Of a stretch of 64,000 nt of DNA, positions 36,009 to 60,185 are shown one piece after another (position 1 is the first letter of the stretch; every line of letters starts with the position of its first letter). Source of the DNA: an uncultured Verrucomicrobiae bacterium. GTDB lineage: Bacteria; Verrucomicrobiota; Verrucomicrobiia; Chthoniobacterales; UBA10450. Both the position numbers and the translations under genes were made by a program. Location: contig CAVYXA010000001.1 in NCBI GenBank assembly GCA_963772365.1, forward strand, positions 320,001-384,000, given 5' to 3'. The notes below the pieces were generated by a model that was not told the origin of the DNA, made no database searches, and saw only the letters and a list, made by a program, of their open reading frames with translations.

Positions 36009-36048
<40 letters not shown>

Positions 36049-36227
36049 TCAAGAACGTGTTTTTGCGCGGGTTTTCATCGGCTTGCGCACGGTTGCAGAC
36101 GCCAGGTGATTGGCCATTTAGCATTCGCGCTGCGTTGCGCAGAATTGCGCCCGTTTACACGAAAAGGACTGGCACACCGTAGAAAACGACCGTGAAAAGA
36201 CTCATTCTCTTTTTGCCAGCATGTAGC

Positions 36228-36713
36228 TCAAGCCGGCAAATGCGTTTCTCCGTGCCTTAACTCCGCAAGCTGTTCATCGAACGTCATCGCTTTGATGTGC
36301 GCATGGATGTGCTGGTGGTCATGCTCGTGCCGAATCACCAATGCCGGGTCGCCGGACAGCGCCTGGAGTTTGTCAACGCAGACACCGAAGACCGGAACGA
36401 GCTGCACGCCTTTGATCTTGCCCGCTGCTACGGCATCTTCGATTTGGTCAATTGAAGCTTGGGCAACACGTGCGGCACTTGCAGCAAGCTCTTGTTTACG
36501 TGCGCTTATAGACTCAGCCTCGCGCGCTTCAACCGCCCGGACCGTCTCTCGCGTCACATAACACGCGCGACAGATTTTCCGCGCCGATACCCCCTCGCTT
36601 AGTAACCGCATTAGTTCCCGGTAAATGCGCGGACGTTCGCGCAAGAGACGCTCGCCAGTGTAGTTGCCCTTCGGCCTCGGCTGATTCCTCAATGAGTCGT
36701 TCTCGGCTGGCAT
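36228..36713 (-). CDS. HTH-containing hypothetical protein (possibly small-terminase-like)
   Basis: LLSEGVSARKICRACYVTRETVRAV HTH-like segment, helical middle, His-rich tail; function inferred only. Confidence 0.6.
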   Translation of the reverse strand: MPAENDSLRNQPRPKGNYTGERLLRERPRIYRELMRLLSEGVSARKICRACYVTRETVRAVEAREAESISARKQELAASAARVAQASIDQIEDAVAAGKIKGVQLVPVFGVCVDKLQALSGDPALVIRHEHDHQHIHAHIKAMTFDEQLAELRHGETHLPA

Positions 36714-36847
36714 TACGTTCGCCTGAACGTTTACGCCTTACTTTGAGCAAACGCAACAGCCTTAAATGATAGCGAATCGAAGCAAAATGTCGGCGACCAT
36801 TTTTACTCTTGAAGCGCCCCGCATGGCGACGACAAGATGATGCCATT

Positions 36848-37306
36848 ATGAATGTCGCCCGTCATTTTGCCGCAACTTGCGCGGTTGTTTGTATTGTGAG
36901 CCATGCTCTAGCTGGCGAGTTTTCCGATCGAGACGGCAATTGGTGGAACACGCGTTCGAATACAGAGAAGGCTATCTACACATTAGGAATGATCGACGGC
37001 GTCGAGACTGCTGGCGCAATGCTGACACAAAAAAGCCGAAGTGTCTCAGATGACTTCGAAAGCGATTTCGCGCGATTGTTTGTAAAGACAGAAGTCAAGC
37101 AACTAAGGGAAGGAATGGATCGCTTCTACAGTGACTTTCGCAATCGCCGCGTCCCCACTTCCGACGCTTTATGGCTGGTCGCTTTGCAGATCAGCGGCGT
37201 ACCTGAAGATGAAGTCGAGCGACTTACAGTTTCGGTAAGGCGGGCGTCGTCCGAGGCTAACGCTATTGAGTTAAAGAAGGAAAAGGAAAAACTGTCACCG
37301 CCCTGA
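36848..37306 (+). CDS. Secreted hypothetical protein (weakly Rap1a immunity-like)
   Basis: Signal peptide ending ALA; DGNWW...YTLGMIDG...MDRFY pattern. Confidence 0.65.
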   Translation: MNVARHFAATCAVVCIVSHALAGEFSDRDGNWWNTRSNTEKAIYTLGMIDGVETAGAMLTQKSRSVSDDFESDFARLFVKTEVKQLREGMDRFYSDFRNRRVPTSDALWLVALQISGVPEDEVERLTVSVRRASSEANAIELKKEKEKLSPP

Positions 37307-37361
37307 GACTGTGGCTCAGAGCTACGGCGAAGGCCAACAAATCAGTGTCCGGACGCCGCCA

Positions 37362-37811
37362 ATGAAACGTTTCTTTGTCGCGCTCATCGCCTTGCTGATT
37401 TGTTGGTGCGCAAACGTCGAGTACACCGCTTATTCGGGCAGGCAACAAGATTGGCCGGTCGCCAGGGGTTCATTTGTGCAACGCAAGTTCGATGTGCCGC
37501 TTTATTTGGGGCCGCCTGATAAACCGTACCGGGTGATTGGTTCTATTGAAACCGCAGCTCCGATAGGGATTTTCGAGAGCGGTTATAGCGAGACGCTCCG
37601 GCCAGCCGCCAGAGAAGCCCGCAGGCATGGAGCAGATGCGATCGTGTTACTGGGGCGCGAGACGAATGTAACTGGGATGCTCAGCACAAGCTCCGCGTCT
37701 GCCAGCATTCGCGCTGTTGGCAATACGGCTTCCGGCAGCGCTTGGGGTTGGGGAGCAACGACGCCAATGCGACAAGCCCGCGCCCGCGTTCTCGCTATTC
37801 AATTTTTGTAA
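37362..37811 (+). CDS. Putative lipoprotein
   Basis: MKRFFVALIALLICWCA signal; PPDKPYRVIG...EARRHGADAIV. Confidence 0.75.
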   Translation: MKRFFVALIALLICWCANVEYTAYSGRQQDWPVARGSFVQRKFDVPLYLGPPDKPYRVIGSIETAAPIGIFESGYSETLRPAAREARRHGADAIVLLGRETNVTGMLSTSSASASIRAVGNTASGSAWGWGATTPMRQARARVLAIQFL

Positions 37812-37924
37812 TCAACCGGCGGCGCTATTTTTCTCGGCGTTTGATGTTCTTCAGATACCAACGAGAAGGGAACGTTCAAAGAGGCCGGATAGCTCACGGG
37901 CAAGCGCAAAAATCGGAGCCCGTC

Positions 37925-38365
37925 TTAAGGATTGAAGTTATAGTATTTTCCACCCCATTCTCGGGGATTGTACGTCGTACCATTGGGTCCGACCCATCTG
38001 ACCGGGTGTTCGGGAGTGATTCCCATCTGTGACAAATAGCGTTGCCGTTTCACCTCCGAAGTAAACGTGATGGGCACAGTGAAGACCTTACCCTTGTATG
38101 AGACAGCAACCTTAGATGCACTTCCCGCGTACAGCTTTAAGCGCGTCTTCTCGGCAATCACAATGTCGCCTGACTTTAGATGAATCTTGGTGGGATGCGT
38201 TACAACCAGGGTGCCGTATTGCCAACCAGTCGATGGTTCTGGATCGATAAAACCGAGCGCATCGGTTTGAGCGGAGCTATTTTTCGCGGCATAATGAGAC
38301 TGAGCACCGGCTGGCGACGCTCCGACAGTCCAAAATGCGATCACAGCAAGAATAACGATGTGCAT
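37925..38365 (-). CDS. Secreted hypothetical protein
   Basis: MHIVILAVIAFWTVGASPAGA signal peptide, beta-rich mature part. Confidence 0.65.
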   Translation of the reverse strand: MHIVILAVIAFWTVGASPAGAQSHYAAKNSSAQTDALGFIDPEPSTGWQYGTLVVTHPTKIHLKSGDIVIAEKTRLKLYAGSASKVAVSYKGKVFTVPITFTSEVKRQRYLSQMGITPEHPVRWVGPNGTTYNPREWGGKYYNFNP

Positions 38366-39063
38366 GCTATCCTTGTAACGAGAAAGAGCTGAGCCAGCAA
38401 TCAATAATCGCCCCACGGTGACTGTGATTTCACCAACCAATCAAACCAGTTTTCTCGCCCGTTCCAATCGTGACCGCAGATCCTCCAGTACATGTCTTCA
38501 TGGATTTTCCTAAGATTTATTTCGTTCACCAGAACCAACGCGATTTTTGTCCACGCTTGGCGCTAGGATAAAGAAAAGCCCAGCGTAAAATACGGCTAAC
38601 GCGAAAACAGGTACGCGGACATCGTTGATCATGTTGTCGTTCATAAGAGTTCTCGTTTCGACATGGTATGAAAAGCCACTACCTACTACATCCTTCCTAT
38701 GCGACTCGGCTGGAGAAATTCTGGGTATTGCTCATCAGTTGCTATGTAATGCAGGCCGATGATCACGCTAAACGGCGGCATACTCCGCCCGTCGAGCGCT
38801 GGCTTGTCGGGTCTGCTGTTCACCACAGGAACAAAATAGAAGAGCACCGACAATCAGCGAGCTGCCTTTGTGATACGAACTCTTCGCCAAAACGCCCAAA
38901 CTAATGCCCTGCCTTAGTTCTGAAGCGAGTCCTTTTCTCGCCTGTAAAAAGCAAACTCTTTGAATCCAACGTCGGCACAGCCTTACCGTAATCAGCGCGC
39001 CAAAAAGAGCCTCAGTCCATTCCGAATCTAAAGCAGTCGCTTCGTCGAACAGAAACATCTTAT

Positions 39064-39432
39064 TCACTTCCAGACGATTGCTTTTGCTCGGTATTGAATA
39101 TCCGTAAAGCTACCGCCCTCTCCACCCCATCGGCTAAATCCGAAATGCCAACCGCCCTCCTTTGTCGCTGACTCTATGTAAACAGCATCTGCCCCATGTT
39201 TGGCGGCTTCGATTCGCATCCCTTTGACGGCTTCCGCTTCAGTCTCATACTTTCCCGCAGGCGGAGTAATGATTCCGATGACGCGATGAGCTTTCTCGGG
39301 TGGCGCTTCGAAATATTGAACATGCTCCATCGTTACAGCTGCATGCGAATTCCCTTGCGGTATCCACATCTCTGGGCCGCCGCACGAAGCGAGCATCGCG
39401 AGCGAAAGTAGGAAAACGATTTTCTTCAACAC
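39064..39432 (-). CDS. Putative lipoprotein, related to 37362-37811
   Basis: Lipobox LASC; PPEKAHRVIG...EAAKHGADAV. Confidence 0.8.
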   Translation of the reverse strand: MLKKIVFLLSLAMLASCGGPEMWIPQGNSHAAVTMEHVQYFEAPPEKAHRVIGIITPPAGKYETEAEAVKGMRIEAAKHGADAVYIESATKEGGWHFGFSRWGGEGGSFTDIQYRAKAIVWK

Positions 39433-39573
39433 GGCGCTATTGAAGCAATGTTTGCCGTTTAGATGCCAGCTTTTTCTTCCCGTTTCGTCCGTCCAGCTTC
39501 GGTGAGTGTCTGCAACGTTTGACCGCTCCCGATCTTGTCAATTGCTTCTCACCGTCGAGAATCGGCTTCGTTC

Positions 39574-39747
39574 CCGTTTCCTGTGTATAGGCACGTAAAT
39601 AGGAAACGAAACAAGACGCATGGAAACGAGCTGGAAACGAACAGAAAATGAATGGCCGTTTTCCCCAGCTAGAGAGGGAAATGAGCGGGAAACGAATGAC
39701 GCCATAATGGAAACGAAGGAACGGTAAAATTATAGTTCCTCGTTTCC
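39574..39747. repeat. GGAAACGA iteron-like cluster (putative element origin)
   Basis: GGAAACGA at 39602, 39622, 39633, 39688, 39709; inverted copies at 39740 (8/8) and 39575 (7-mer). Confidence 0.7.
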
Positions 39748-41643
39748 ATCTGCGCGCTGCACGAGCGCATAGTCCCGACCGTCTTTTTTCAGCCATCCTT
39801 CACGAAAGCCTTTGGCCGCCCATTTCGAGATTGTTCCTTTGGATACTTTCATTTCTTCGGCGAGTTGGCTGCAATCGGTCACACCATCCTCAATCCATTT
39901 CCTGAAGACCTGCAATGACTCCGCCAGCTTGTGCGAAATGCTGACTGTACCTGATGTCTCGGTCACAAAGTGCCATTCGTATGCGGGGACTTCCTCTTGC
40001 GTATTCCGGCTTGGTTTGGTGAACCGGGAGATAAACCGCGCGCCTCGCTTGTCGTCCGCGTTCTGCTTGGCATCGTCCAGCGCGATAATCCAAAACACGT
40101 TATCTTCGCGCTTGCTCGTGCCGCGCATTTCACCGGAGCGCCCGGCGTGATGCACGATGACGACCGCAATCTTTCGGCGCCGTAAGTCCAAGAGCCAGTG
40201 GTTAACTTGCTCCCAACTGTCGGCTTCGTTCTCTCTCACACCGCTGGCAAGAGTTGAAAGGTTGTCCAGGATCAACGCCTTTATCCCGCTGGTGACGCAA
40301 CGGGCCGTGATCGCTTGTTGCATTTCAGGGTTCGCGATATTGAGCACTCGGCCAGCCCGTTCAAACAAGATTTCATGATTCAAAAAGTGAAGGTTTCCAT
40401 TGCTCGCGTGTAGTCCTTCAGATCTGCCGCGCATCAGATCCGGCGGCATCTCGCCATCGATGTAGAGGACATTGACTGGCGCATGCGCCGGCCAATCCCC
40501 AAGTTTTCCACCGGTGGATAACGCCTGAGCTATGCCCAGAGCAAGCCACGTCTTGCCGACACCGCGAAAGGCGAAGATAAATCCGAGATCGCCTTCGGAG
40601 AACCAGTCGCCAAGGAGTTTCTTTCGTGGAACCAAGTTGAGATCGCGCAACTCGCTCGATGTGACGACAGACTCATTGAGCGCATCGATCCATGACTTCT
40701 CCGGCTCGAAAACGACTTCGGCGTTCTTCATGGCGGCGAGCAGGTCATCGACAGTCGCACCCGCGCGCGTCCAATCGTTAAGGTCTTTGAATTGCTGCGG
40801 CGTTTTGGGCCAAAGCACCTTTCTCTCCGCGTGTGCCGCTACATCCTTGAGCCATTCATCACCCGCGCGCTTCCCGTTCTTCAATTCGTCGTTCTGTTTC
40901 CACGCGTAAACGGTCGTCCCGGCCGGGATTAGTCCAGCCACAAGCGCACCGTTTCGCGCGCCACGAGTGACAATGACTCCGGTACGTTCGCCGGATTTGT
41001 TCATAAAGGAGAAAGCGTCAAAGTAACTCTCGAAAATATGAACGGGTTCATTTGGGAGCAATTGGCCGATGATAAGCGGGCGCACCTTTGCGCCTTGCGG
41101 ATAGTATCGCCATGATCCGTCTTTCAGGCGGTAATGAACGGCAACAACTTTGTCCACGTGATCGCGTACGGGAAATGCAATGCAGCCGTCATAAAAGCCA
41201 ACAAGCCCGTTCTCTTTCGGCCAGGAACAAAACTCGATTGAGTAGCCGCGCCCGTTCGCGAGCTGTTCAATCTGATTCTCTGTGAAAGCAAGCACGCACG
41301 CACGCCAGTCCAGCGGCGATGTCGATCTTGCTGCCGATGCTTGGTTTGGAGCCGAAAGTGCAGCGCCGTTTCCTCCAGCTAACTCCAGAAACAGCTTTGT
41401 CGCGACGTTGTTCGAAACGTTGCGATGCTTTTCCAGAAAGGTGATTTCATCGCCCTCGCCGCAACCCGAATGACATTTCCAGAACCATAGTCCGGCCCCG
41501 TTCTTCCAAACGGAAAAGGAATTGTGTTTGTCATCGTGAAACGGACAACGCGCGGATTTCTTTGCGTGTTCGCCGACTCCAAGTCGATACATTAAGGTCG
41601 GAAGCGACAGCCGTTGCTTTGCCTCGCGAATGTCCGCGCTCAT
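39730..41643 (-). CDS. Primase-helicase: CHC2 zinc finger + TOPRIM-like + AAA_25/RepA-type helicase
   Basis: CPFHDD...WKCHSGCG, KDLNDW, AFRGVGKT Walker A, LILDNL, VHHAGR, RGTS. Confidence 0.9.
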   Translation of the reverse strand: MSADIREAKQRLSLPTLMYRLGVGEHAKKSARCPFHDDKHNSFSVWKNGAGLWFWKCHSGCGEGDEITFLEKHRNVSNNVATKLFLELAGGNGAALSAPNQASAARSTSPLDWRACVLAFTENQIEQLANGRGYSIEFCSWPKENGLVGFYDGCIAFPVRDHVDKVVAVHYRLKDGSWRYYPQGAKVRPLIIGQLLPNEPVHIFESYFDAFSFMNKSGERTGVIVTRGARNGALVAGLIPAGTTVYAWKQNDELKNGKRAGDEWLKDVAAHAERKVLWPKTPQQFKDLNDWTRAGATVDDLLAAMKNAEVVFEPEKSWIDALNESVVTSSELRDLNLVPRKKLLGDWFSEGDLGFIFAFRGVGKTWLALGIAQALSTGGKLGDWPAHAPVNVLYIDGEMPPDLMRGRSEGLHASNGNLHFLNHEILFERAGRVLNIANPEMQQAITARCVTSGIKALILDNLSTLASGVRENEADSWEQVNHWLLDLRRRKIAVVIVHHAGRSGEMRGTSKREDNVFWIIALDDAKQNADDKRGARFISRFTKPSRNTQEEVPAYEWHFVTETSGTVSISHKLAESLQVFRKWIEDGVTDCSQLAEEMKVSKGTISKWAAKGFREGWLKKDGRDYALVQRADGNEEL

Positions 41644-41800
41644 TGGTTGTCGATCCTGTCTTGGAGTCGCGCTTTGACTTGTTCGATCTTCCAAAAGACG
41701 AAGCTGGACGGCGCTTGCACAAAGCTGAGCAGACGATATGCTGCCATTAGTTCAGCAGTTTTGAGCGCGGCTTGCAGGCCGCGTTCTTCTTTTGGCGCTG

Positions 41801-42097
41801 TCACGATTGACCTCCGGTCTCGCCCGCGCTCGCCTTTTGTGGGTTGTAGTCGGCAGCTCGCGCCAGGAAACGATCAACTTCGGCGCGCGGAATCAGTAAT
41901 CTTCCAGCGTCGGAAATTGGTTTGACGCGTCCCGCGTAAATCTGTCGGTAGGCGTACGTCGGCGATCTCCCGACGGCTGCGGCAAACTCCCGCGGACTGA
42001 AAGCGAGCCGCTCGTTTAGGTTAACTGCTTCTGGTTTACGCGCAGGACGCGATTGCGTCTGCGCCCGATGTGTTTCTTTTTGTTTGTCGTATTGCAT
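41801..42097 (-). CDS. Excisionase-like HTH DNA-binding protein
   Basis: AFSPREFAAAVGRSPTYAYRQIYAG...RLLIPRAEVDRFL. Confidence 0.8.
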   Translation of the reverse strand: MQYDKQKETHRAQTQSRPARKPEAVNLNERLAFSPREFAAAVGRSPTYAYRQIYAGRVKPISDAGRLLIPRAEVDRFLARAADYNPQKASAGETGGQS

Positions 42098-42138
42098 CGT
42101 CTTTTTCCAGAACGATGCGACGCGACACGGTTTAATCG

Positions 42139-43188
42139 TTACGTTCCGTCAGTTTTTTTTCGTAACTTCGTCGCATTACCCCAGACGGGCAGTCCACGTG
42201 AATTACGGTGATTGGGAACCGCCACATGCCTAACGAACTCGGCAAGAGGCGCTTTGTTTCGCTTCTCTCTATTACCAACAAACCGAAGGCCGTCCGTAAT
42301 CCAATTTCTCCGGAAGTTCGCTTCCGTTGCTTTCTCGGCCTCAGCAAATCCACGCGCGACAGCAGACTTTCTTACTTCCTCCGCACGCCAGGCATATCGA
42401 CGGAAGATTGGATAACACCACCACACCCAGCGTTCTAGTGCCGTGCAATCTTTTTCTCCTTTTTCTGCCAGCCTCGCGGCTTTCTCCAGAATGTTCGACC
42501 AGTGCCGCCGATTCCACGGCACGCCTTGCGAATCTACAGCAAGACCCCAGCCTTCCCACACGTGCGCCCCTCTGAGTTTTCGCCCTTTCCAGCCGTCAGA
42601 TTCAATTATGCGCGCGGGAAATTTCGCGAGCATCTCGGCTTGAATTGCGCACGCCCTAGCGTCTGGATCATCACCTTGCCAAGCAGCGCGATTTAGCTTA
42701 AACGCAATCCACATGCTGAGAGATTCCTGCGCCTCGATCCAGGACGCGATTGAATCGAGGAGGAAAAGAAATGATACGCAATCTCCAAGCTTGGAACGTT
42801 CGTGTTCAGGCAGCACCCAAGCGAGGCGTTCAGTAGCAGGTATCGCACACAGCGCGTTGATTTCTTCGAAGTGCAATCGACGTGGTTCGTCATAACCAAG
42901 CTGCAGCGAGCGATCAGTGACAAGCGAATAACAAAGAGACATCGTGTCGATGAGGCGATTCTTCCCTGCTAACTCGATTCGTTGCGTGAGATTCTCAATC
43001 AGTCGGCCGTTCTGAAATCGCAGTTTGTCCGGTTCTGATGTGAGGCATTCCGTTTCGAGCTGGCCCCGCAAATCGTTTATAGCGTCCCACCAGATTTGCT
43101 GACCGTACGGAAAACCAATATGCAACTTTGGCGTCGCTTTTCTACGCAACCTCCACCGACGGTTGCCGCTCACTCCTTTTTTCTTCAC
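42139..43188 (-). CDS. Hypothetical protein (Trp-rich) of the integrated element
   Basis: 349-aa ORF between integrase and xis; no motif recognised. Confidence 0.65.
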   Translation of the reverse strand: MKKKGVSGNRRWRLRRKATPKLHIGFPYGQQIWWDAINDLRGQLETECLTSEPDKLRFQNGRLIENLTQRIELAGKNRLIDTMSLCYSLVTDRSLQLGYDEPRRLHFEEINALCAIPATERLAWVLPEHERSKLGDCVSFLFLLDSIASWIEAQESLSMWIAFKLNRAAWQGDDPDARACAIQAEMLAKFPARIIESDGWKGRKLRGAHVWEGWGLAVDSQGVPWNRRHWSNILEKAARLAEKGEKDCTALERWVWWCYPIFRRYAWRAEEVRKSAVARGFAEAEKATEANFRRNWITDGLRFVGNREKRNKAPLAEFVRHVAVPNHRNSRGLPVWGNATKLRKKTDGT

Positions 43189-43401
43189 AATTTTTCCGGC
43201 TAGCCTAACCGTTTAGCGTTCGAGCCGGGGCGGAGCGTTGAGGCGGTCCCCCCCGCCGGGGCCTGCCAGGTGTCGAGGCGATTCGCACGACATGGAAGTA
43301 GGCCGGCTCTGGCGGGCGCAATCGCGGGGCCGGTTTGTGCTTCACTTTCTTGCCTGCGTAGCGCGGTGGTTCCTCTGATGCGAGTGGCTTAAGGTCGGCG
43401 C

Positions 43402-44547
43402 TCATGCACTGGCGGGAAACGGAATCACGTCGGCTTGCTTTGTCGTGACCGGCGCGAACGTGACGCGCTGAGCTTGTGCGATGCTGTGCTCACGTCGCAA
43501 ATGACCATAGGTTTTCATCGCCAGCGCCCCGCCGTCCTTGTGTCCAAGCCAGCGCGAAACGGTCGGAATGTCCACGCCCGATTCGATGCAGATCGTCACA
43601 AATAAATGCCTCAAATCGTGATGGGTCAGCCGTGATATTCCGAGCTTCTTACATGCGCTATTGATTGCCCGCTGCGCTTCATTAACACAGAAAACTTTTG
43701 CTGTCGGAGGTTCCTTCAAACGCCCTTTTCGCATTCGTTGAAGCAGAACACGCAGATCGGGAATCATCGGTACTCGGCGCACCGTCCAATTCTTCGTTCC
43801 TGTTTCAGGATCGCCGCGAATGACAACTTCATTGGCCTCAAAGTCCACGTCTCGCCATTCAATCTGTACTGCTTCACCTTTTCGGCATCCAGTGAATGCC
43901 AGTCCTCGCAGAAAGTCTGCGCAATCGCGGGAACACCACGCGCCGGCACGCTCCACTGCATCTACAAGCTGTAAAAATTCTTCCCGGCTTGGAAGTGTGG
44001 GTTGTTTTGCACGCACTCGCACCCGCTCTAGTTTCGCCGCTGGATTGCCGTACATGACGCCCGCATCAATCGCTACCTCGAATACATGCCGCAGCCCAGA
44101 GATCGTGTTGTTGTATCTCGTATCCGACGCCACCTTGCGAAAACGTCGTGCCCATTCTTTACATTCCGTTCTTGTAATGCGTCGGATTTCCCGATCCGCA
44201 AGACCGGGCCAGCTTTTGAGCAGCGCTACAAAAATCTGATTCCAATAATGTCGCGTGCTCGGCTTAATGTCGGGGTTATCGGCCTGATTCTGTTGATGGC
44301 TCGCCAGCGCTTTGGCGAAAGTCATTTTGGCCGACACGTGGCCATTCCCATTCTCGAAGCGCTCCCGGTGTTCATTGAGAAATTGAGCGAGCTTCGCTTG
44401 CGCTACGCTGAAATGTGATGTGCCGAGAGCCTTCCAAACCTCTTTGCCGTGAGCGAAAGCTCTGGCATAATAGCTGCCGGACTTATGCCGAAGAAGGTTT
44501 GGAAGTCGCGTTCGTTGCCACGTTTTCGCTGCTTTGCGCTCTTTCAT
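43402..44547 (-). CDS. Tyrosine recombinase/integrase
   Basis: TGCRKGE, TKN, HDLRH, WLGH, KTY catalytic set; adjacent to tRNA. Confidence 0.96.
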   Translation of the reverse strand: MKERKAAKTWQRTRLPNLLRHKSGSYYARAFAHGKEVWKALGTSHFSVAQAKLAQFLNEHRERFENGNGHVSAKMTFAKALASHQQNQADNPDIKPSTRHYWNQIFVALLKSWPGLADREIRRITRTECKEWARRFRKVASDTRYNNTISGLRHVFEVAIDAGVMYGNPAAKLERVRVRAKQPTLPSREEFLQLVDAVERAGAWCSRDCADFLRGLAFTGCRKGEAVQIEWRDVDFEANEVVIRGDPETGTKNWTVRRVPMIPDLRVLLQRMRKGRLKEPPTAKVFCVNEAQRAINSACKKLGISRLTHHDLRHLFVTICIESGVDIPTVSRWLGHKDGGALAMKTYGHLRREHSIAQAQRVTFAPVTTKQADVIPFPASA

Positions 44548-44622
44548 AAAGCCGACCGTAGAATAGCACCGTGAAAAGCGCAACACGAATCTTTTCCAGT
44601 CGGGCGAATTACCTAGGTAAAT

Positions 44623-44695
<73 letters not shown>

Positions 44696-45381
44696 CTGTT
44701 TATTTTCGATTTTCGATCGGGGATTTGCGATTCTCGATCTTGTGCAATCACTGGCACCCCGGCTGGAACAACGCGAGGAATCGGTTGAGTTGCGCGACTG
44801 GCCACGGGTTTGAAGTCACCGGCAGTGTATCCATTTCTCGCTCCCTGGTGGATATCGTCGGCCATTGCTTATTGGTCAGGACAGCCCCGGGGGTGCGGGG
44901 AGCTCCCACGAAAGCTTTCAGGGGATTGCCGACAGCGCTCGCTTTTACCTGGGCGAGGTCGGGCGCGAGCGAAGCAAATCCTCGCGAGACATCGAGTCCA
45001 GTAGGTTTTCAGCTATGACGCCGAGCGAGTGAGGGAGAATTCAGCGTCCATTTTGGGGCGAATCCTTCGCGGAATGATCTTTGCTCTATGTTGGATCGCC
45101 GCCGAGCCAGGCGCCGCCGTTTCTTGTGTTATCAGGCCAGAACGATGCGGCCAAACTTTACCGGGTTGTGAAGAAGCTGTGAAAAAGTTGACTTTTTACG
45201 TGAGAAAGTTTTGACATCGAGGCCCAATATCTGGAATAATAGCGCGTGTTGAAAAAATTCATCCCACAGAAACCGATGTCCGGCGATCAGCGAAGGATCG
45301 TCGAACTCGGCCACCGATGATAGCAACCGATTCGCGTTTCGCGAACAACCAAGAACATCCACAACCGATTACCAAAAAACT

Positions 45382-55337: not shown

Positions 55338-56781
55338 AACTTCATCCGACGGACGTCCTTCTGCGCCCGGATAATAAGCGCGTAGTCGTGCGCCCCTTTA
55401 TCTCAACCGATCCTGCACGGGTAGAACATATCATCGCCCGCGCTCTTACGCTCAGCGAGTCGGAAACCGACAAACAGCTCGCGTTAGTTCGAGCGGATTT
55501 TGGCGAGAGACATGTCGACCTTGATAAAAGTTGGCTACGGCACTTTGAAAAGGTGCGAGCACAGGTTCCCAACGGTAAAACGATTTCCAAAGCACGCCGG
55601 CTATTCATTGGTGCTCTTTTTTCCGGCGAGTACGCACTCGAATCGACCGCATTATTTAATCCCTCGATTATTCCGCACCCCGACCAGACTGGTTTAAGGC
55701 AGGGTGAACTCCGTTTTATCTTAGCCTCCGCTCGACCGGGGAAGGTCATATCTCATCGATCCAGTTTCGAGCCGGTGTGGTCCGTCGTGATCACTCAGTC
55801 CGGATCGAGAAAACGACGCCTTTCGTAACACTGCCGGAGCTTAATCCCAATCCGGCCTACCATAAACGCACCTTCCTGGACAAACTGAGCGAGATGGGGC
55901 TGGAGAACGATTGGGCCGCGTCAGTCATGGGAAGATTAGGAAAAACTTTTCTGTTTGACGAACTGGTCGAGTCCATTCAACAAGCAGCACCGGACGAGGC
56001 TTCCTCACAAGCGCGTGACGTGCAGCGAACTTTGGAATGCATGCACTGGCTCGCGGAATCCAACTACGAAATTCATTTCAAATCTTCCTCACAAATATCG
56101 GAACGCATTATCTTTCCGGTCTCGTCTAACGAGAGCAATGGGATTGAGGACGCCCGTTTTGTTCGATTTGTCGAAGACGATGGTAGCGTAATCTACTACG
56201 CGACCTACACAGCTTACAACGGCCGAGTCATTCTCCCGCAGCTGATCGAGACCGCGGATTTCCTGCACTTCCGTGTCCTGACCCTTAACGGACAGGCGGT
56301 GCAAAACAAAGGGATGGCGCTCTTTCCCAGACGCATAAACGGGTATTACGCTATGCTTTCGCGACAGGACGATGAGAATCTCTTCCTCGCCTTTTCCGAC
56401 AACCCGCATTTTTGGAGTGACCCAGAGCTACTACTAGACCCTCGCCAGCCGTGGGAGTTCGTAAAGCTGGGCAACTGTGGTTCACCAATTGAAACCGAAG
56501 CTGGCTGGTTGGTTCTCACTCACGGCGTCGGTCCAATGCGGAAGTATTGCATCGGAGCCATCTTGCTTGACCTGCACGATCCCGCCAAAATCATTGGACG
56601 ACTCAAAGAGCCGCTCTTAAGACCGGAAGGCAGTCAAAGGGAAGGCTACGTGCCAAATGTGGTTTATTCCTGTGGTTCCCTCGTCCACAACGGGCAACTG
56701 ATGCTGCCTTATGGCATCAGCGATACAGATTCTGGCATTGTCAGAGTAGAGCTAAATGAGCTTTTGGCTGGCCTTATCTAA
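55334..56781 (+). pseudogene. Glycoside hydrolase family 130 protein, frameshift near 55730
   Basis: ALFNPS, NGIEDARFV, YATYTAYNG, NKGMALFP, EGYVPNVVYSCG. Confidence 0.88.
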
Positions 56782-56912
56782 GAGGAGCGCTCTTCCAAAT
56801 ACCGCTTCTTACTGATCTATTCGTTCCCGCAATCCGCAGTCGTGTCATTCGACTTTAACCGTAAAATCCTCGAAACGGCTTTTGTCGGAAGAAGCTGGAG
56901 TCGAGCCAGTTA

Positions 56913-56987
56913 TGGCTCCAGAGGTAGGATTCGAACCTACGACCAATCGGTTAATCCCGACTGTGTCGGGACTCTAGCACTGAGCTA
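56913..56987 (-). pseudogene. Defective tRNA-Asn copy with 17-nt palindrome replacing the 5' anticodon-stem strand
   Basis: 56913-56954 identical to the tRNA-Asn 3' half; palindrome 56955-56971; D-arm remnant 56972-56987. Confidence 0.9.
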
Positions 56988-57241
56988 GGTTTATATCTGA
57001 GCAACTCCTTTCGGATTCTACGGGCAGATTTCCATGATTTGATTTCGCGTTCGCGACGCATCGCGCTGGACCTGTCGGGATAATCTTCGACCCAAGCCAA
57101 AGTCCAGGGCCCGTTCTTACGAGTAAATTTGCCCAGGATCCTATCCGTTCGATTGTGGCTTAAGATTCTTTGGGGGACGTCATCGGAATGGCCGATGTAG
57201 AATCTGCCGACTGGATTTTGGAGAATGTATACCGCAAACAT
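56951..57241 (-). CDS. Stand-alone GIY-YIG nuclease (96 aa), tRNA-Asn-associated
   Basis: AVYILQ..GRFYIG..QRILSHN..GPW..AMRREREIK; ATG 8 nt after the tRNA CCA. Confidence 0.92.
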   Translation of the reverse strand: MFAVYILQNPVGRFYIGHSDDVPQRILSHNRTDRILGKFTRKNGPWTLAWVEDYPDRSSAMRREREIKSWKSARRIRKELLRYKPSSVLESRHSRD

Positions 57242-57249
57242 GAAAAATT

Positions 57250-57324
57250 TGGCTCCAGAGGTAGGATTCGAACCTACGACCAATCGGTTAACAGCCGACC
57301 GCTCTACCACTGAGCTACTCTGGA
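57250..57324 (-). tRNA. tRNA-Asn(GTT), CCA encoded
   Basis: TCCAGAGTAGCTCAGTGGTAGAGCGGTCGGCTGTTAACCGATTGGTCGTAGGTTCGAATCCTACCTCTGGAGCCA. Confidence 0.97.
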
Positions 57325-57377
57325 TCGCTGATTGAGATCGGTCGTATATTTGTCCAGCGTTTCTCTCCAAGCAACTG

Positions 57378-57432
57378 CCAATCGGTTAATCCCGACTGCA
57401 TCGGGACTCTACCACTGAGCTACTCTGGATCG
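57378..57432 (-). pseudogene. 5' tRNA-Asn fragment carrying the same palindrome substitution, T arm missing
   Basis: TCCAGAGTAGCTCAGTGGTAGAG-TCCCGATGCAGTCGGGA-TTAACCGATTGG. Confidence 0.88.
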
Positions 57433-57536
57433 TGTTTCGCCCGATGAGCGGGCTGAATCTTGCGCAGAGGAGTGCGCGCAGCAAGTGATTTGGTTGCGGG
57501 GGGCGGATTTGAACCGCCGATCCGGCAGCTGCCGGA

Positions 57537-57800
57537 TTATGAGCGGCGAACCCTAGGAAAACCCGTAATTGCGTAAAAGCCCGCTCCTCTGCCTTGTCGT
57601 TTCAATCGGTTCTCCATCTTCCTAGCGTCGCTCAGCAACATCGGCTCGCTCTGCCAGACCATCTTCCAGGGACCGCGTCCTTTGGTCCAGCGGGATTCGC
57701 CGGAATTGTGTTGGCGCGTTCTTCTTTCAACATCATCGGTAACTCCAACATAAAATCTGCCCGTGTCATTTTGAAGGACGTAGACCCGGTAAGTTACCAA
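57537..57800 (-). CDS. GIY-YIG nuclease, distal copy with divergent C-terminus (87 aa)
   Basis: RVYVLQ..RFYVG..RRTRQHN..GPW..ARKME; TTG start. Confidence 0.9.
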   Translation of the reverse strand: MVTYRVYVLQNDTGRFYVGVTDDVERRTRQHNSGESRWTKGRGPWKMVWQSEPMLLSDARKMENRLKRQGRGAGFYAITGFPRVRRS

Positions 57801-57860
57801 AGCGCCAGAAAATTTGGTTGCGGGGGGCGGATTTGAACCGCCGATCCGGCAGCTGCCGGA

Positions 57861-58121
57861 TTATGAGCCATCCCGATGCAGACCTGTCATCGCGTAGAAG
57901 CCCGAGCCTCTCCCTTGCCGCTTCAGCCGGTTCTCCATTTTCCTTGCTTCGCCTAGAGTTATCGGCTCGCTCTGCCAGACCATCTTCCAGGGACCGCGTC
58001 CTTTGGTCCAGCGGGATTCGCCGGAATTGTGTTGGCGCGTTCTTCTTTCAACATCATCGGTAACTCCAACATAAAATCTGCCCGTGTCATTTTGAAGGAC
58101 GTAGACCCGGTAAGTTACCAA
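57861..58121 (-). CDS. GIY-YIG nuclease, array copy (86 aa)
   Basis: Same motifs; protein identical to the other 86-aa copies. Confidence 0.9.
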   Translation of the reverse strand: MVTYRVYVLQNDTGRFYVGVTDDVERRTRQHNSGESRWTKGRGPWKMVWQSEPITLGEARKMENRLKRQGRGSGFYAMTGLHRDGS

Positions 58122-58181
58122 AGCGCCAGAAAATTTGGTTGCGGGGGGCGGATTTGAACCGCCGATCCGGCAGCTGCCGGA

Positions 58182-58442
58182 TTATGAGCCATCCCGATGC
58201 AGACCTGTCATCGCGTAGAAGCCCGAGCCTCTCCCTTGCCGCTTCAGCCGGTTCTCCATTTTCCTTGCTTCGCCTAGAGTTATCGGCTCGCTCTGCCAGA
58301 CCATCTTCCAGGGACCGCGTCCTTTGGTCCAGCGGGATTCGCCGGAATTGTGTTGGCGCGTTCTTCTTTCAACATCATCGGTAACTCCAACATAAAATCT
58401 GCCCGTGTCATTTTGAAGGACGTAGACCCGGTAAGTTACCAA
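58182..58442 (-). CDS. GIY-YIG nuclease, array copy (86 aa)
   Basis: Identical repeat unit. Confidence 0.9.
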   Translation of the reverse strand: MVTYRVYVLQNDTGRFYVGVTDDVERRTRQHNSGESRWTKGRGPWKMVWQSEPITLGEARKMENRLKRQGRGSGFYAMTGLHRDGS

Positions 58443-58502
58443 AGCGCCAGAAAATTTGGTTGCGGGGGGCGGATTTGAACCGCCGATCCGGCAGCTGCCG
58501 GA

Positions 58503-58763
58503 TTATGAGCCATCCCGATGCAGACCTGTCATCGCGTAGAAGCCCGAGCCTCTCCCTTGCCGCTTCAGCCGGTTCTCCATTTTCCTTGCTTCGCCTAGAG
58601 TTATCGGCTCGCTCTGCCAGACCATCTTCCAGGGACCGCGTCCTTTGGTCCAGCGGGATTCGCCGGAATTGTGTTGGCGCGTTCTTCTTTCAACATCATC
58701 GGTAACTCCAACATAAAATCTGCCCGTGTCATTTTGAAGGACGTAGACCCGGTAAGTTACCAA
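58503..58763 (-). CDS. GIY-YIG nuclease, array copy (86 aa)
   Basis: Identical repeat unit. Confidence 0.9.
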   Translation of the reverse strand: MVTYRVYVLQNDTGRFYVGVTDDVERRTRQHNSGESRWTKGRGPWKMVWQSEPITLGEARKMENRLKRQGRGSGFYAMTGLHRDGS

Positions 58764-58823
58764 AGCGCCAGAAAATTTGGTTGCGGGGGGCGGATTTGAA
58801 CCGCCGATCCAGCAGCTGCCGGA

Positions 58824-59084
58824 TTATGAGCCATCCCGATGCAGACCTGTCATCGCGTAGAAGCCCGAGCCTCTCCCTTGCCGCTTCAGCCGGTTCTCCA
58901 TTTTCCTTGCTTCGCCTAGAGTTATCGGCTCGCTCTGCCAGACCATCTTCCAGGGACCGCGTCCTTTGGTCCAGCGGGATTCGCCGGAATTGTGTTGGCG
59001 CGTTCTTCTTTCAACATCATCGGTAACTCCAACATAAAATCTGCCCGTGTCATTTTGAAGGACGTAGACCCGGTAAGTTACCAA
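58824..59084 (-). CDS. GIY-YIG nuclease, tRNA-proximal array copy (86 aa)
   Basis: Starts 14 nt after the CCA of tRNA-fMet. Confidence 0.9.
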   Translation of the reverse strand: MVTYRVYVLQNDTGRFYVGVTDDVERRTRQHNSGESRWTKGRGPWKMVWQSEPITLGEARKMENRLKRQGRGSGFYAMTGLHRDGS

Positions 59085-59098
59085 AGCGCCAGAAAATT

Positions 59099-59175
<77 letters not shown>

Positions 59176-59258
59176 GGGTCAAGATTGCAGAATTCACCGC
59201 GAAATCAACCATCCACAGGCTTCGAGATTAGGTTGAGAGATTTTTCTCTTCGCTCAGA

Positions 59259-60185
59259 ATGACAACTATGGGAGATAGAATCCTGGTTGGCACCGCGAGC
59301 TGGTCCGATCCGGGATTTGTTCAGCATTGGTATCCGAAACGGATGCCTGCGGGTGAGCGCCTTGGGTGGTACGCGCAGCATTTCGAGCTGGTCGAAGTGA
59401 ATTCGACGTTCTATTCCGTGCCCGAGCCGCGTTTGGTCGAACGCTGGTGCCGGAGTACTCCGGATCCATTCACTTTCGACGTAAAGCTGCACCAACTGCT
59501 TTCCCGTCACTCCACGGCTTCGAAATTGTTGCCGCCAAACCTGCAGAAATGCGCCGAAATCGATTCAAAAGGAAAAGCAATACTGACGCCTGAACTGGAA
59601 GAGGCAATGATCAACGACTTTTTGCCTTCGCTGTCGATCTTTCGAAGCTCGGGAAAGTTGGGCGCACTTCTTTTGCAGCTCTCCCCCGCGTTTTCTCCAC
59701 GCCAAAACAAGTTGGTCGAACTTGAGTCGATCATTGAGAAGCTGCGCGGTTACGAGCTCGCGATAGAATTTCGCAATCGCAATTGGGCGATCGGAGATCA
59801 ATTAGGATCGACCATTGAATTCCTGCGGGATCGGAACGTGGCCTTTGTGAATGTCGATGCTCCAAAGTCCGACCATTTCACGGTCCTGCCATCCGACCTT
59901 GATGAAGTGACAAACCGCAGCATTGCGTATTTGCGCCTGCATGGCCGCAATGCCCGGGCTTACGTTACGGGCAGGACCGTGGCCGCGCGGTTTAATTATG
60001 ATTACGGCGATGAGGAAATTGGCGAGATCGCCGAGCGAACCAAATGCCTTGCGAAAAATGCGGCAACGGTCCACGTCGTGTTCAATAACAACGCGCTCGA
60101 TTACGCCCCGCGCGCTGCGGCTCGTTTGCGCAAAGCGCTCGGACAGATCGTGCCGACGATCCCGGAAACGGCGGAGTTATTTTGA
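59259..60185 (+). CDS. DUF72 (YecE-like) protein
   Basis: VGTASWS, VEVNSTFY, LLLQLSP, IEFRN, YLRLHGRN, VFNN. Confidence 0.92.
   Translation: MTTMGDRILVGTASWSDPGFVQHWYPKRMPAGERLGWYAQHFELVEVNSTFYSVPEPRLVERWCRSTPDPFTFDVKLHQLLSRHSTASKLLPPNLQKCAEIDSKGKAILTPELEEAMINDFLPSLSIFRSSGKLGALLLQLSPAFSPRQNKLVELESIIEKLRGYELAIEFRNRNWAIGDQLGSTIEFLRDRNVAFVNVDAPKSDHFTVLPSDLDEVTNRSIAYLRLHGRNARAYVTGRTVAARFNYDYGDEEIGEIAERTKCLAKNAATVHVVFNNNALDYAPRAAARLRKALGQIVPTIPETAELF

Follow-up and report, generated by a model that had tools for sequence, protein, structure and literature searches.

The members of the Ssn family (SsnA in Neisseria meningitidis; CDD cd10448) are small GIY-YIG nucleases with a single domain, whose binding target is a hairpin repeat in single-stranded DNA, and the family is the closest described system to the locus presented here (Chenal et al., 2025; PMC11893778). 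According to this source, the stem sequence of the repeat matters and the loop does not, the repeat is associated with Ssn genes, and the word tRNA has no occurrence (PMC11893778). SegB of the T-even phages is a free-standing GIY-YIG homing endonuclease residing in a tRNA gene cluster (PMC2330249; PMC13096335), where it drives tandem amplification of the tRNA-plus-nuclease unit by homologous recombination (PMC13096335). Literature outside subscription journals and the supplements of PMC11893778 yielded no account of small GIY-YIG genes with hairpin-bearing pseudo-tRNAs, and the cassette described below has the appearance of a relative, so far undescribed, of the selfish nucleases that recognise hairpins.

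The window, which is the whole stretch of 64,000 nucleotides analysed, carries on its minus strand an intact tRNA-Asn(GTT) followed by a spacer of 8 nt, a GIY-YIG ORF of 96 aa, and a 5'-truncated tRNA-Asn copy, in that order (Table 1). This layout, together with a run of 42 nucleotides identical between the two tRNA sequences, had been claimed in a preliminary description of the window and was confirmed by the coordinates, ARAGORN, Rfam, and Pfam. The working tRNA is the sole tRNA-Asn among the 48 tRNAs found in the genome assembly. In the downstream copy, the 3' 42 nt (56954..56913) are 100% identical to positions 57291..57250 of the working gene, and the copy received no tRNA call from ARAGORN, nor from Rfam at E <= 1. 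The last 12 codons of the ORF (PSSVLESRHSRD) are made up of the D-arm remnant and the palindrome TCCCGACACAGTCGGGA of this copy, in agreement with the approximately 12 codons assigned to them earlier, and the stop codon is a TAA from its old anticodon loop. The preliminary description had also pointed to AATTTT directly after the CCA end; the motif is real, but it stands equally behind the nuclease-free tRNA-Asn of L019 and is therefore tRNA trailer rather than cassette.

Table 1. Features of the Asn locus and of the neighbouring initiator tRNA-Met array (positions of the window).
Feature	Position	Strand	Remarks
Intact tRNA-Asn(GTT)	57324..57250	-	ARAGORN; Rfam 74.6 bits
Spacer AATTTTTC	57249..57242	-	8 nt, CCA end to ATG; start of the native tRNA trailer
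GIY-YIG ORF, 96 aa	57241..56954	-	Stop TAA 56953..56951; gene 56951..57241
Downstream 5'-truncated pseudo-tRNA-Asn	56987..56913	-	D-arm remnant, hairpin, 3' 42 nt including CCA
Hairpin TCCCGACACAGTCGGGA in the downstream copy	56971..56955	-	17-nt palindrome, 7-bp stem and 3-nt loop; overwrites part of the anticodon arm
Upstream full-length decayed pseudo-tRNA-Asn	57429..57353	-	Missed in the preliminary description
Hairpin TCCCGATGCAGTCGGGA in the upstream pseudo-tRNA-Asn	57406..57390	-	Overwrites the 5' strand of the anticodon stem
Initiator-type tRNA-Met with five 321-nt units	57491..59175	-	tRNA 59175..59099

The upstream pseudo-tRNA-Asn retains a 5' stretch of 23 nt identical to the working tRNA, and its T arm and acceptor 3' strand have decayed. 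The same element also precedes tRNA-Asn in L015, L126, L040, and L041. The tRNA-plus-gene is flanked by a hairpin on both sides, one in each pseudo-tRNA. A scan for intrinsic terminators on the minus strand of 56700-59400 returned no terminator-like site, and no T runs follow the hairpins, on which grounds a role of the hairpin as an intrinsic terminator was rejected. The GIY-YIG gene is the sole ORF of the Asn unit, which holds no site-specific recombinase gene. The unit resembles tyrosine-integrase islands in that an insertion next to an intact tRNA ends, on its far side, in a partial tRNA copy, and it is unlike them in lacking an integrase, in its length of 0.3-0.4 kb, in the hairpin that overwrites part of the duplicated tRNA, and in the tandem arrays. 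The window also holds a classical integrase island at a tRNA, with a 39-nt 5' repeat at 36010-36048, an integrase at 43402-44586, and a tRNA at 44623-44696.

The Asn protein matched the Pfam GIY-YIG family (PF01541) with an E value of 7.1e-15 and 55.5 bits (cut-off 22.6), and it consists of a single domain at residues 2-74, with no separate DNA-binding domain. The catalytic residues of the GIY-YIG superfamily are the Tyr of GIY, the Tyr of YIG, an Arg, and a Glu; the protein possesses catalytic Tyr5, Tyr15, Arg25, His29, and Glu64, with Y15, R25, H29, E64, and K68 invariant in 30 aligned sequences and Y5 kept in at least 90%. Its structure model has a pLDDT of 82.8, falling below 50 in tail residues 86-93, and the top Foldseek matches of the model are 1zg2 (UPF0213 BH0048), SLX1, UvrC, and the I-TevI catalytic domain, ranks 1-12 being filled by UPF0213 proteins and the SLX1 nuclease domain. 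Sequence profiles matched 1zg2 (E 5.6e-18) and 1ywl (EF2693; E 2.3e-13), and an NCBIfam search matched no family. The best reading from the sequence is a single-domain GIY-YIG nuclease of an Ssn/UPF0213-like group, with UPF0213 proteins as the nearest solved relatives. For UPF0213 (BH0048 and EF2693), the depositors' titles state no function, and no association with tRNA genes or hairpin repeats is described for these proteins or for SLX1, which together provide the best sequence and fold matches. SLX1 further carries an extra zinc-finger part and has Slx4 as its partner.

Two sister loci lie behind other tRNAs of the same genome. Each of the five units behind the initiator-type tRNA-Met is composed of an 86-87-aa GIY-YIG gene, CTCATAA, the hairpin TCCGGCAGCTGCCGGA, and then the 3' 30 nt of the tRNA. 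The protein of this array shares 36% identity with the Asn protein over 67 aa (E 4e-15), in line with the earlier statement that the two are related yet distinct. Four of the five 321-nt units are identical, while the last differs from them at 26 of 321 positions, all within the final 95 nt, with 12.5 synonymous versus 7.5 non-synonymous changes (omega 0.15). A third GIY-YIG paralogue, not noticed before, was found behind tRNA-Lys(TTT) on contig C6. The genome also encodes a GIY-YIG protein not linked to a tRNA (L001); the repeat on its flanks has 34 copies and comes near to the NTS consensus as printed for Ssn.

The tRNA-linked layout recurs at several tRNA genes across Verrucomicrobiota (Lys, initiator Met, Asn, Pro, and Arg), with proteins of 82-96 aa throughout the tRNA-linked clades. 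Of 24 genomes belonging to the same family, 22 gave profile matches. Within the first set of loci, 48 of 95 matches were tRNA-adjacent or array members, and among the matches of at least 60 bits, 42 of 50 adjoined a tRNA or sat in tandem arrays of 310-340-nt units, the first units beginning 5-31 nt after the tRNA. Similarly, in a sample of 200 genomes of the phylum, a same-strand tRNA was located within 85 nt upstream at 17 of 27 loci. For the clades not linked to tRNAs, a search for other RNA genes with Rfam gave two tRNAs only, in 20 loci. A chance duplication, against which the preliminary description had argued, is excluded. A chance local duplication or an assembly artefact has next to no probability left; the genome does appear to be metagenome-assembled (90% completeness, related records), but dozens of assemblies made independently share the layout, purifying selection acts on the conserved ORF, and the locus lies on a 1.8 Mb contig, so that this explanation is refuted for the unit itself, the exact number of initiator tRNA-Met units aside. 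Among public sequencing runs, none contained more than 0.10 of the sampled words of 56850-59250.

The protein tree (102 rows, 12 isotype labels) required 18 changes of tRNA isotype, with a minimum of 11 and a mean of 45.8 after shuffling, and 0 of 200 shuffles came as low. The Asn protein of the window groups with Asn-linked proteins from other classes of the phylum. One clade (SH-aLRT 99) unites the units at tRNA-Lys, a second CAT-tRNA, and tRNA-Arg(CCT), and tRNA-Asn is occupied by at least three separate protein clades. The preliminary description had proposed a family with tRNA-specific members and a phylogeny against isotype as its check; a family of small tRNA-linked GIY-YIG genes exists and its clades track isotype, but the match is not one-to-one, because one clade serves several tRNAs and Asn has at least three clades. 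The pattern can equally be produced by vertical inheritance of linked loci.

The hairpins follow the protein tree in a similar manner. When eight hairpin classes were placed on it, 8 changes were needed (minimum 7; shuffled mean 27.8). From genus to genus the loop changes but the stem stays constant, the stem sequence being kept across classes of the phylum; for instance, the Asn stem occurs with other loops in L011, L040, L041, L102, L104, L107, L108, and L112. The tRNA part overwritten by the hairpin differs by clade and may be the anticodon stem, the whole arm, or the T loop. Folded as DNA, the Asn hairpin reaches -7.3 kcal/mol (z -3.2), and with as many as 3 mismatches allowed, a search of the window for its palindrome gave 3 matches, located at 2 sites, versus 0.10 expected. 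By analogy with the Ssn nucleases, the hairpin is a likelier recognition element than the tRNA, and it tracks the clades about as well.

The hairpin types differ in their spread over the genomes. The Asn type is found at the unit and one unrelated site only in this genome, and in 41 genomes it was located at 11 places, 4 of them at tRNA-Asn and 7 in unrelated contexts, so the Asn hairpin was rejected as a dispersed repeat. The type of the Lys/CAT-tRNA clade, CCCCGAA-N4-TTCGGGG, is dispersed; this genome has 13 copies and relatives have as many as 52, against 0 for the reversed control. It is present in 19 of the 41 genomes, and 16 of these 19 carry a Lys- or CAT-tRNA-linked gene, which in 13 cases is full-length and belongs to that clade and in 3 (G010, G017, and G020) is a truncated copy placed in the Lys/CAT type by its adjacent tRNA only; no such gene was found in the 22 genomes without the repeat.

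Set against the Ssn nucleases, the tRNA-linked cassettes are alike in the small single-domain protein and the flanking hairpins of the Asn unit, in the conserved stem and free loop, in nuclease clades paired with their own repeat, and in one hairpin type dispersed in tens of copies, mostly in genomes with the matching gene (PMC11893778). They are unlike Ssn in that the hairpins lie inside tRNA-derived sequence, where they replace part or all of the anticodon arm, in that the gene stands a few nucleotides behind an intact tRNA with units in tandem arrays, and in that the Asn-type hairpin is confined to its locus, apart from one unrelated site, and forms no multi-copy repeat. On this analogy, we give a probability of about one half to the reading that the Asn unit is one copy of a tRNA-embedded, Ssn-like hairpin-nuclease cassette that would spread by break and copy and multiply by unit amplification.

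A free-standing homing endonuclease of the SegB type would instead cut the double-stranded, intact tRNA gene at the anticodon arm and be copied in by double-strand-break repair, the hairpin being no more than a scar, or a change conferring immunity, that protects the spare copy from cutting. In favour of this reading, the gene lies within or next to a tRNA gene, half of which is duplicated, and the hairpin overwrites different tRNA parts in different clades. One conserved site also shows variable occupancy among relatives, since tRNA-Asn has a nuclease gene in the window, L011, L040, and L041 and none in L015, L019, and L126. SegB itself is a precedent, with a GIY-YIG gene adjoining tRNA genes and tRNA-linked tandem amplification of units (PMC13096335). 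The cassettes, however, reside in a bacterial chromosome, their array units hold the 3' tRNA part only, and none of them lacks the specific hairpin. SegB, which cuts double-stranded DNA, is larger and includes a DNA-binding part, whereas the cassette protein, single-domain and without a DNA-binding domain at 82-96 aa, appears too small for a long double-stranded target unless it is oligomeric. The intact tRNA beside the gene would remain cuttable, and a stem that is conserved across classes, tracks the protein clade, and in one type is dispersed in up to 52 copies is unlike a mere scar, all of which makes a SegB-type origin rather unlikely.

The tRNA-linked GIY-YIG genes are under purifying selection, with omega at 0.06-0.20 in 7 of 14 gene pairs, those where it was computable. 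Some tandem copies are old (dS about 0.6) and both are still conserved, which fits a retained function better than a purely selfish element, and the layout persists between genera whose synonymous sites are saturated. These observations, and the ordinary character of the neighbouring genes (GH130 and DUF72), would agree with a domesticated, immobile host module inherited vertically, acting for example in processing or in limiting recombination or transformation at tRNA operons, with the pseudo-tRNAs as remnants of old duplications; SsnA modulates transformation in Neisseria (PMC11893778). Against such a module stand its patchy distribution (among 200 other genomes of the phylum, 24 had matches at E <= 1e-15), presence and absence at the same tRNA among genera, truncated and frameshifted copies in L040, L062, L066, and L076, the four identical 321-nt units, which suggest recent amplification, and the acceptor-stem allele of the working tRNA in L040, which differs from all three of its pseudo-copies. 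The host module is accordingly judged improbable. In an empty-site comparison inside the genus, with G001, the DUF72 flank was matched at 72% identity with no adjoining tRNA and the other flank was unmatched, synteny being broken.

An action at the RNA level, in which the transcribed hairpin pseudo-tRNA would serve as a decoy, an antitoxin-like partner, or a 3' stabiliser for a nuclease acting on tRNA, is very improbable. The gene does lie on the strand of the tRNA, probably in the same transcript, starting 5-31 nt behind it, and Lys, initiator Met, Asn, Pro, and Arg tRNAs, those occupied here, are common targets of anticodon nucleases. The downstream copy, however, escapes both ARAGORN and Rfam and, without a 5' acceptor strand, cannot fold as a tRNA, and we know of no RNase in the GIY-YIG superfamily. 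SsnA neither bound nor cut RNA (PMC11893778).

For the Ssn-like cassette, we infer the substrate and cut site of the Asn nuclease, the break-repair route, and horizontal spread as follows. Like SsnA, the nuclease would recognise its own hairpin in single-stranded DNA, specifically by the stem sequence and freely as to the loop, and nick beside it. With the hairpin in place of the anticodon arm of the spare copy, the nicks would land inside tRNA-derived direct repeats, and recombinational repair between these repeats would gain or lose whole units, giving the five initiator tRNA-Met units here and the arrays in relatives. The same repair would hold the tRNA-derived arms identical to the working tRNA, and tRNA homology could carry a copy of the cassette, in a homing-like manner, into a tRNA gene of the same isotype that is still unoccupied. 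To our knowledge, no covalent DNA intermediate arises in GIY-YIG catalysis, so DNA insertion would be beyond the nuclease alone and no strand transfer is expected; in this, and in the catalytic family, the cassettes are unlike REP/RAYT (Y1) and IS200/IS605, which they resemble in having a dispersed hairpin repeat and one small repeat-flanked nuclease gene. A comparison of Ssn with REP/RAYT-type systems was made by the Ssn authors (PMC11893778).

It is possible, though tentative, that the cassettes represent a bacterial drive inside tRNA genes, in which a hairpin-guided single-strand nuclease overwrites the anticodon arm of spare or resident tRNA copies with its own hairpin, in every case beside a working tRNA, the tRNA sequence supplies the homology arms for entry into new genomes and for multiplication in place, and each clade has co-evolved with one hairpin and mostly one tRNA. 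If true, nature would supply a library of matched nuclease-hairpin pairs, at least eight in number. With the cassettes, the hairpin-specific GIY-YIG nucleases, which were described recently, would gain a branch that is embedded in tRNA genes and forms arrays, and single-stranded-DNA tools could draw on many natural nuclease-hairpin pairs. The cassettes would also account for pseudo-tRNAs and short tandem repeats near tRNA genes that are otherwise unexplained in annotation, and would show a route, neither integrase nor intron, by which selfish DNA occupies single-copy tRNA genes without destroying them.

The locus that holds the GIY-YIG unit at tRNA-Asn(GTT) lies between two ordinary neighbours, GH130 and DUF72, and starts at a tRNA-Met, which we take to be of the initiator type from its C1/A72 ends (see the table). 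The preliminary description had claimed an intact tRNA-Asn, a short spacer, a GIY-YIG ORF and a defective tRNA-Asn copy with an identical 3' end, and every observed item holds. The truncated copy is composed, 5' to 3', of a D-arm remnant, the palindrome TCCCGACACAGTCGGGA, which occupies the place of the anticodon-stem 5' strand and the first loop bases, TTAACCGAT and the terminal CCA. The claim that the ORF tail is read from the decayed D arm and the palindrome was likewise borne out: the ORF runs through both and stops at the TAA of the former anticodon loop, and the fMet ORFs are likewise terminated by this TAA in their own tRNA remnant. Beyond that description, an upstream pseudo-tRNA-Asn was found to carry a hairpin variant, TCCCGATGCAGTCGGGA, and the same TTAACCGATTGG, beyond which both the T arm and the acceptor strand are decayed. 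ARAGORN did not recognise either pseudo-tRNA-Asn copy as a tRNA, nor did Rfam at E <= 1. Also new is a third unit at the end of contig C6 of the same genome (positions 1-700, locus L003), in which tRNA-Lys(TTT), a 10-nt spacer and an 82-aa GIY-YIG ORF are followed by AGAGCAG, CCCCGAACGCTTTCGGGG and the 3' 32 nt of tRNA-Lys; an upstream pseudo-tRNA-Lys with the same hairpin type is present here as well.

Features of the locus, the hairpin types and other elements of the genome (C1, C2, C3 and C5 are contigs of the genome; other positions are in window coordinates)
Feature	Position	Strand	Remarks
tRNA-Met, presumably initiator type	59175..59099	minus	first element of locus order
fMet array	behind tRNA-Met	minus	five 321-nt units, each with an 86-87-aa GIY-YIG ORF
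61-nt gap	fMet array to pseudo-tRNA-Asn	minus	
Upstream pseudo-tRNA-Asn	57429..57353	minus	5' 23 nt identical to tRNA-Asn
Intact tRNA-Asn(GTT)	57324..57250	minus	ARAGORN, Rfam
8-nt spacer AATTTTTC	between tRNA-Asn and ORF	minus	
GIY-YIG ORF	57241..56951	minus	96 aa
5'-truncated tRNA-Asn copy	56987..56913	minus	last 42 nt identical to working tRNA-Asn
Hairpin, Lys and CAT-tRNA units			CCCCGAA-N4-TTCGGGG
Hairpin, Asn units			TCCCGAC-N2-3-GTCGGGA
Hairpin, most fMet units			(A)TCCCGC-N4-GCGGGA(T)
Hairpin, Pro units			GTCGCCGCGGCGAC
Nuclease-free Lys-type hairpins	C1:275821, C3:409235, C5:314336, C2:30102		at Gly/Ala/Gln/Ser tRNAs
Tyrosine integrase gene	43402-44586	minus	island 36010-44696
Primase-like AAA_25/CHC2 gene	39730-41694		island 36010-44696

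The 96-aa protein was assigned to GIY-YIG by Pfam (E 7.1e-15), and no family was matched in a search of NCBIfam. Its AlphaFold model comprises a single GIY-YIG domain with a mean pLDDT of 82.8, in which residues 86-93, the stretch encoded by tRNA and hairpin DNA, fall below 50. The closest solved relatives are UPF0213 BH0048 and EF2693, then SLX1, with UvrC and the I-TevI catalytic domain farther away. Across 30 aligned members, Y15, R25, H29, E64 and K68 never vary, and Y5 is almost invariant. The genome possesses nine PF01541 matches: seven tRNA-linked units, one non-tRNA copy on contig C3 and one weak match. The non-tRNA gene (L001, C3:612865-613089) lies among neighbours named by eye from their translations, presumably MoxR-like and DUF58-like, and its protein belongs to a clade that is sister to all tRNA-linked clades in a 102-row tree. 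On both sides of the gene there are inverted copies of a repeat that begins GTCATYCCGAGCG; the genome has 34 copies of this repeat, against none for the reversed control, and the repeat is close to the NTS consensus printed in the available text of the paper on Ssn, small single-domain GIY-YIG nucleases (PMC11893778).

The feature is real, recurrent and under selection. A profile of four proteins from this genome found matches in 22 of the 24 further genomes sampled from its family and in 3 of 16 from the order's other families, counts that take in the unpublished genomes G003, G008 and G014, on which alone none of the conclusions depends. At the 95 matches inspected at their loci, with 18 weaker places outside that set, 48 either follow a same-strand tRNA by no more than 45 nt or are later array members; this holds for 42/50 matches of at least 60 bits and 6/45 below. 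Three of the other eight matches of at least 60 bits are still 85-165 nt behind a tRNA (L017, L044 and L049), and at L017 and L049 the gap contains a hairpin-bearing tRNA remnant. First units start 5-31 nt past the tRNA end. The tRNAs occupied in this set are Lys(TTT), initiator Met, a second CAT tRNA (elongator Met or Ile2), Asn(GTT), Pro(GGG) and Pro(TGG). Among 200 further genomes drawn evenly from the phylum, 24 have a match at E <= 1e-15, with a same-strand tRNA at most 85 nt upstream at 17 of the 27 loci inspected, including Arg(CCT) with three tandem units, Arg(CCG), Pro(CGG) and Leu(GAG).

The units share one design. The ORF frequently terminates at a TAG within the D-loop motif GGTAGAGC and is followed by the D-stem 3' strand, a hairpin replacing the anticodon arm, the variable loop, the T arm and the acceptor strand; from variable loop to acceptor the sequence agrees with the genome's own tRNA. 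The hairpin replaces the entire anticodon arm in the Lys, CAT-tRNA, Gln and Pro cases, the anticodon-stem 5' strand in Asn, and the 3' strand plus variable loop in the fMet units of the window; in the fMet units of two other loci, L015 and L019, it lies within the T loop. One locus of the Pro clade (L058) has the mirror layout, with a 5' half and hairpin, the gene, and an intact tRNA whose upstream flank is duplicated. An upstream pseudo-tRNA is present at many loci, and at L015 and L126 one precedes tRNA-Asn with the nuclease gene absent. The pseudo-tRNAs of L020, L023 and L047 have an internal 22-23-nt insert beginning CCTGCTCGCGA, in either orientation and as a tandem pair in L047; a single copy occurs in the window's genome, at C5:18110.

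Selection on the proteins was estimated from units and homologues. Between the last fMet unit and the other four there are 26 differences in 321 positions, confined to the final 95 nt, with 12.5 synonymous and 7.5 non-synonymous changes (omega 0.15), and the first 226 nt of these units have evidently been homogenised. Among 14 homologue pairs, omega is 0.06-0.20 in the seven estimable, and the other seven show synonymous saturation (pS 0.78-0.96) with pN of 0.12-0.30. Two arrays contain copies at dS about 0.6, both conserved. Truncated or frameshifted copies exist at L040, L062, L066 and L076, and the gene at tRNA-Asn is present in some genera and absent in others. At L040, acceptor pairs are of the GAG/CTC type in the working tRNA-Asn and of the GCG/CGC type in all three pseudo-copies; working gene and remnants are therefore different alleles. 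At four Lys loci the upstream pseudo-tRNA, unlike the working gene, has a conserved promoter-like motif in front of it, so that the pseudo-copy appears to hold the original position.

The two paralogues had been thought to point to a family with tRNA-specific members and not to a chance duplication, and a phylogeny of clade against isotype had been proposed. Trees were built from matches spanning at least 58 profile positions, the second with one row per locus and label; the alignments span just 86-90 columns, and only half of the forks are resolved. The tRNA labels need 10 changes in the 86-row tree (minimum 6, shuffled mean 40.4) and 18 for 12 labels in the 102-row tree (minimum 11, shuffled mean 45.8), with none of 200 shuffles as low in either. 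The window Asn protein falls in a four-row clade (SH-aLRT 98) nested in a group of nine rows (SH-aLRT 84), eight Asn-linked ones and L112, which bears an Asn-type hairpin. Clades thus track isotype, but the correspondence is not one to one: a single clade (SH-aLRT 99) unites Lys, CAT-tRNA and Arg(CCT) units, and the occupants of tRNA-Asn fall in at least three clades (four changes, 11 rows). Since linked vertical descent yields the same clustering, the trees refute chance pairing without establishing that the nuclease reads the tRNA.

Members of one clade share the same hairpin stem in different genera, and even in different classes of the phylum, while the loop is variable. Eight stem classes, defined after seeing the data and assigned for 49 of the 102 tree rows (the remaining 53 have no hairpin of at least 6 bp, or another sequence), need 8 changes on the protein tree (minimum 7), against a mean of 27.8 and a lowest value of 24 in 200 shuffles. 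Folded as single-stranded DNA, four hairpins of this genome gave -6.9 to -12.8 kcal/mol (z -2.4 to -4.0). The Lys-type hairpin is dispersed, with 13 copies in this genome, up to 52 in relatives and none anywhere for the reversed control. Six of the 13 are located at or next to a tRNA gene or tRNA-derived sequence, including those directly 3' of tRNA-Gly(GCC) and tRNA-Ala(CGC). The hairpin also occurs 63-64 nt 5' of tRNA-Gln and tRNA-Ser(TGA), and before tRNA-Gln it replaces the anticodon arm of a tRNA-Gln remnant; none of these four places has a nuclease gene. CAG stands immediately 5' of the stem, on one strand, in 8 of the 13. The hairpin was found in 19 of 41 genomes, 16 of which have a Lys- or CAT-tRNA-linked gene (in three it is truncated and assigned by its tRNA alone); none of the 22 hairpin-free genomes has one among the matches inspected, those outside scoring E >= 1.4e-9. 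As kin genomes are not independent, this is an association and not a test. The Asn hairpin was rejected as a dispersed repeat, 4 of its 11 places in the 41 genomes being at tRNA-Asn.

Loci L069, L072, L073, L083, L090, L092, L093 and L095 hold a second GIY-YIG subfamily linked to tRNAs, whose C-terminus reads KYLKSGSGR.F..RH. In relatives, genes of this subfamily follow tRNA-Ala, tRNA-Gly and a CAT tRNA at a distance of 110-165 nt, and long hairpins intervene. The L073 unit is closed by a 14-nt tRNA-end copy and a CCCCGAA hairpin, an end that by eye matches the gene-free tRNA-Ala site of the window's genome. Another clade has no tRNA nearby (L026, L061, L064, L065, L030, L067, L068, L074 and L085); its genes are bracketed by inverted repeat copies of the form CCGCGTAAAAG..CTTCGC..CACGCGG.

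A classical integrase island in the window provides a contrast case, in which the 5' 39 nt of a CAT-anticodon tRNA (44623-44696) are repeated at 36010-36048. Contig C5 has further island-typical partial tRNA copies: a second copy of the 3' 45 nt of tRNA-Val(GAC) lies at a distance of 38 kb, and two sites have the 5' 40 nt of tRNA-Thr(TGT). For SegB, a GIY-YIG homing endonuclease of T-even phages, the available text describes nuclease-driven tandem amplification of a tRNA-plus-nuclease unit via homologous recombination, a precedent for tandem amplification of a nuclease unit linked to a tRNA (PMC13096335). The tRNA-embedded form of a hairpin GIY-YIG cassette was not found described in a literature search, and the word "tRNA" is absent from the available text of the Ssn paper (PMC11893778). 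According to that text, Ssn, the closest described system, comprises single-domain GIY-YIG proteins, defined by CDD cd10448, whose binding site is a hairpin repeat in single-stranded DNA and whose cut falls immediately upstream of that repeat; the stem sequence matters for recognition and the loop sequence does not, and the repeats flank the gene in up to hundreds of copies (PMC11893778). By analogy with this system, the units are best read as Ssn-like cassettes of a predicted hairpin nuclease, resident in tRNA genes.
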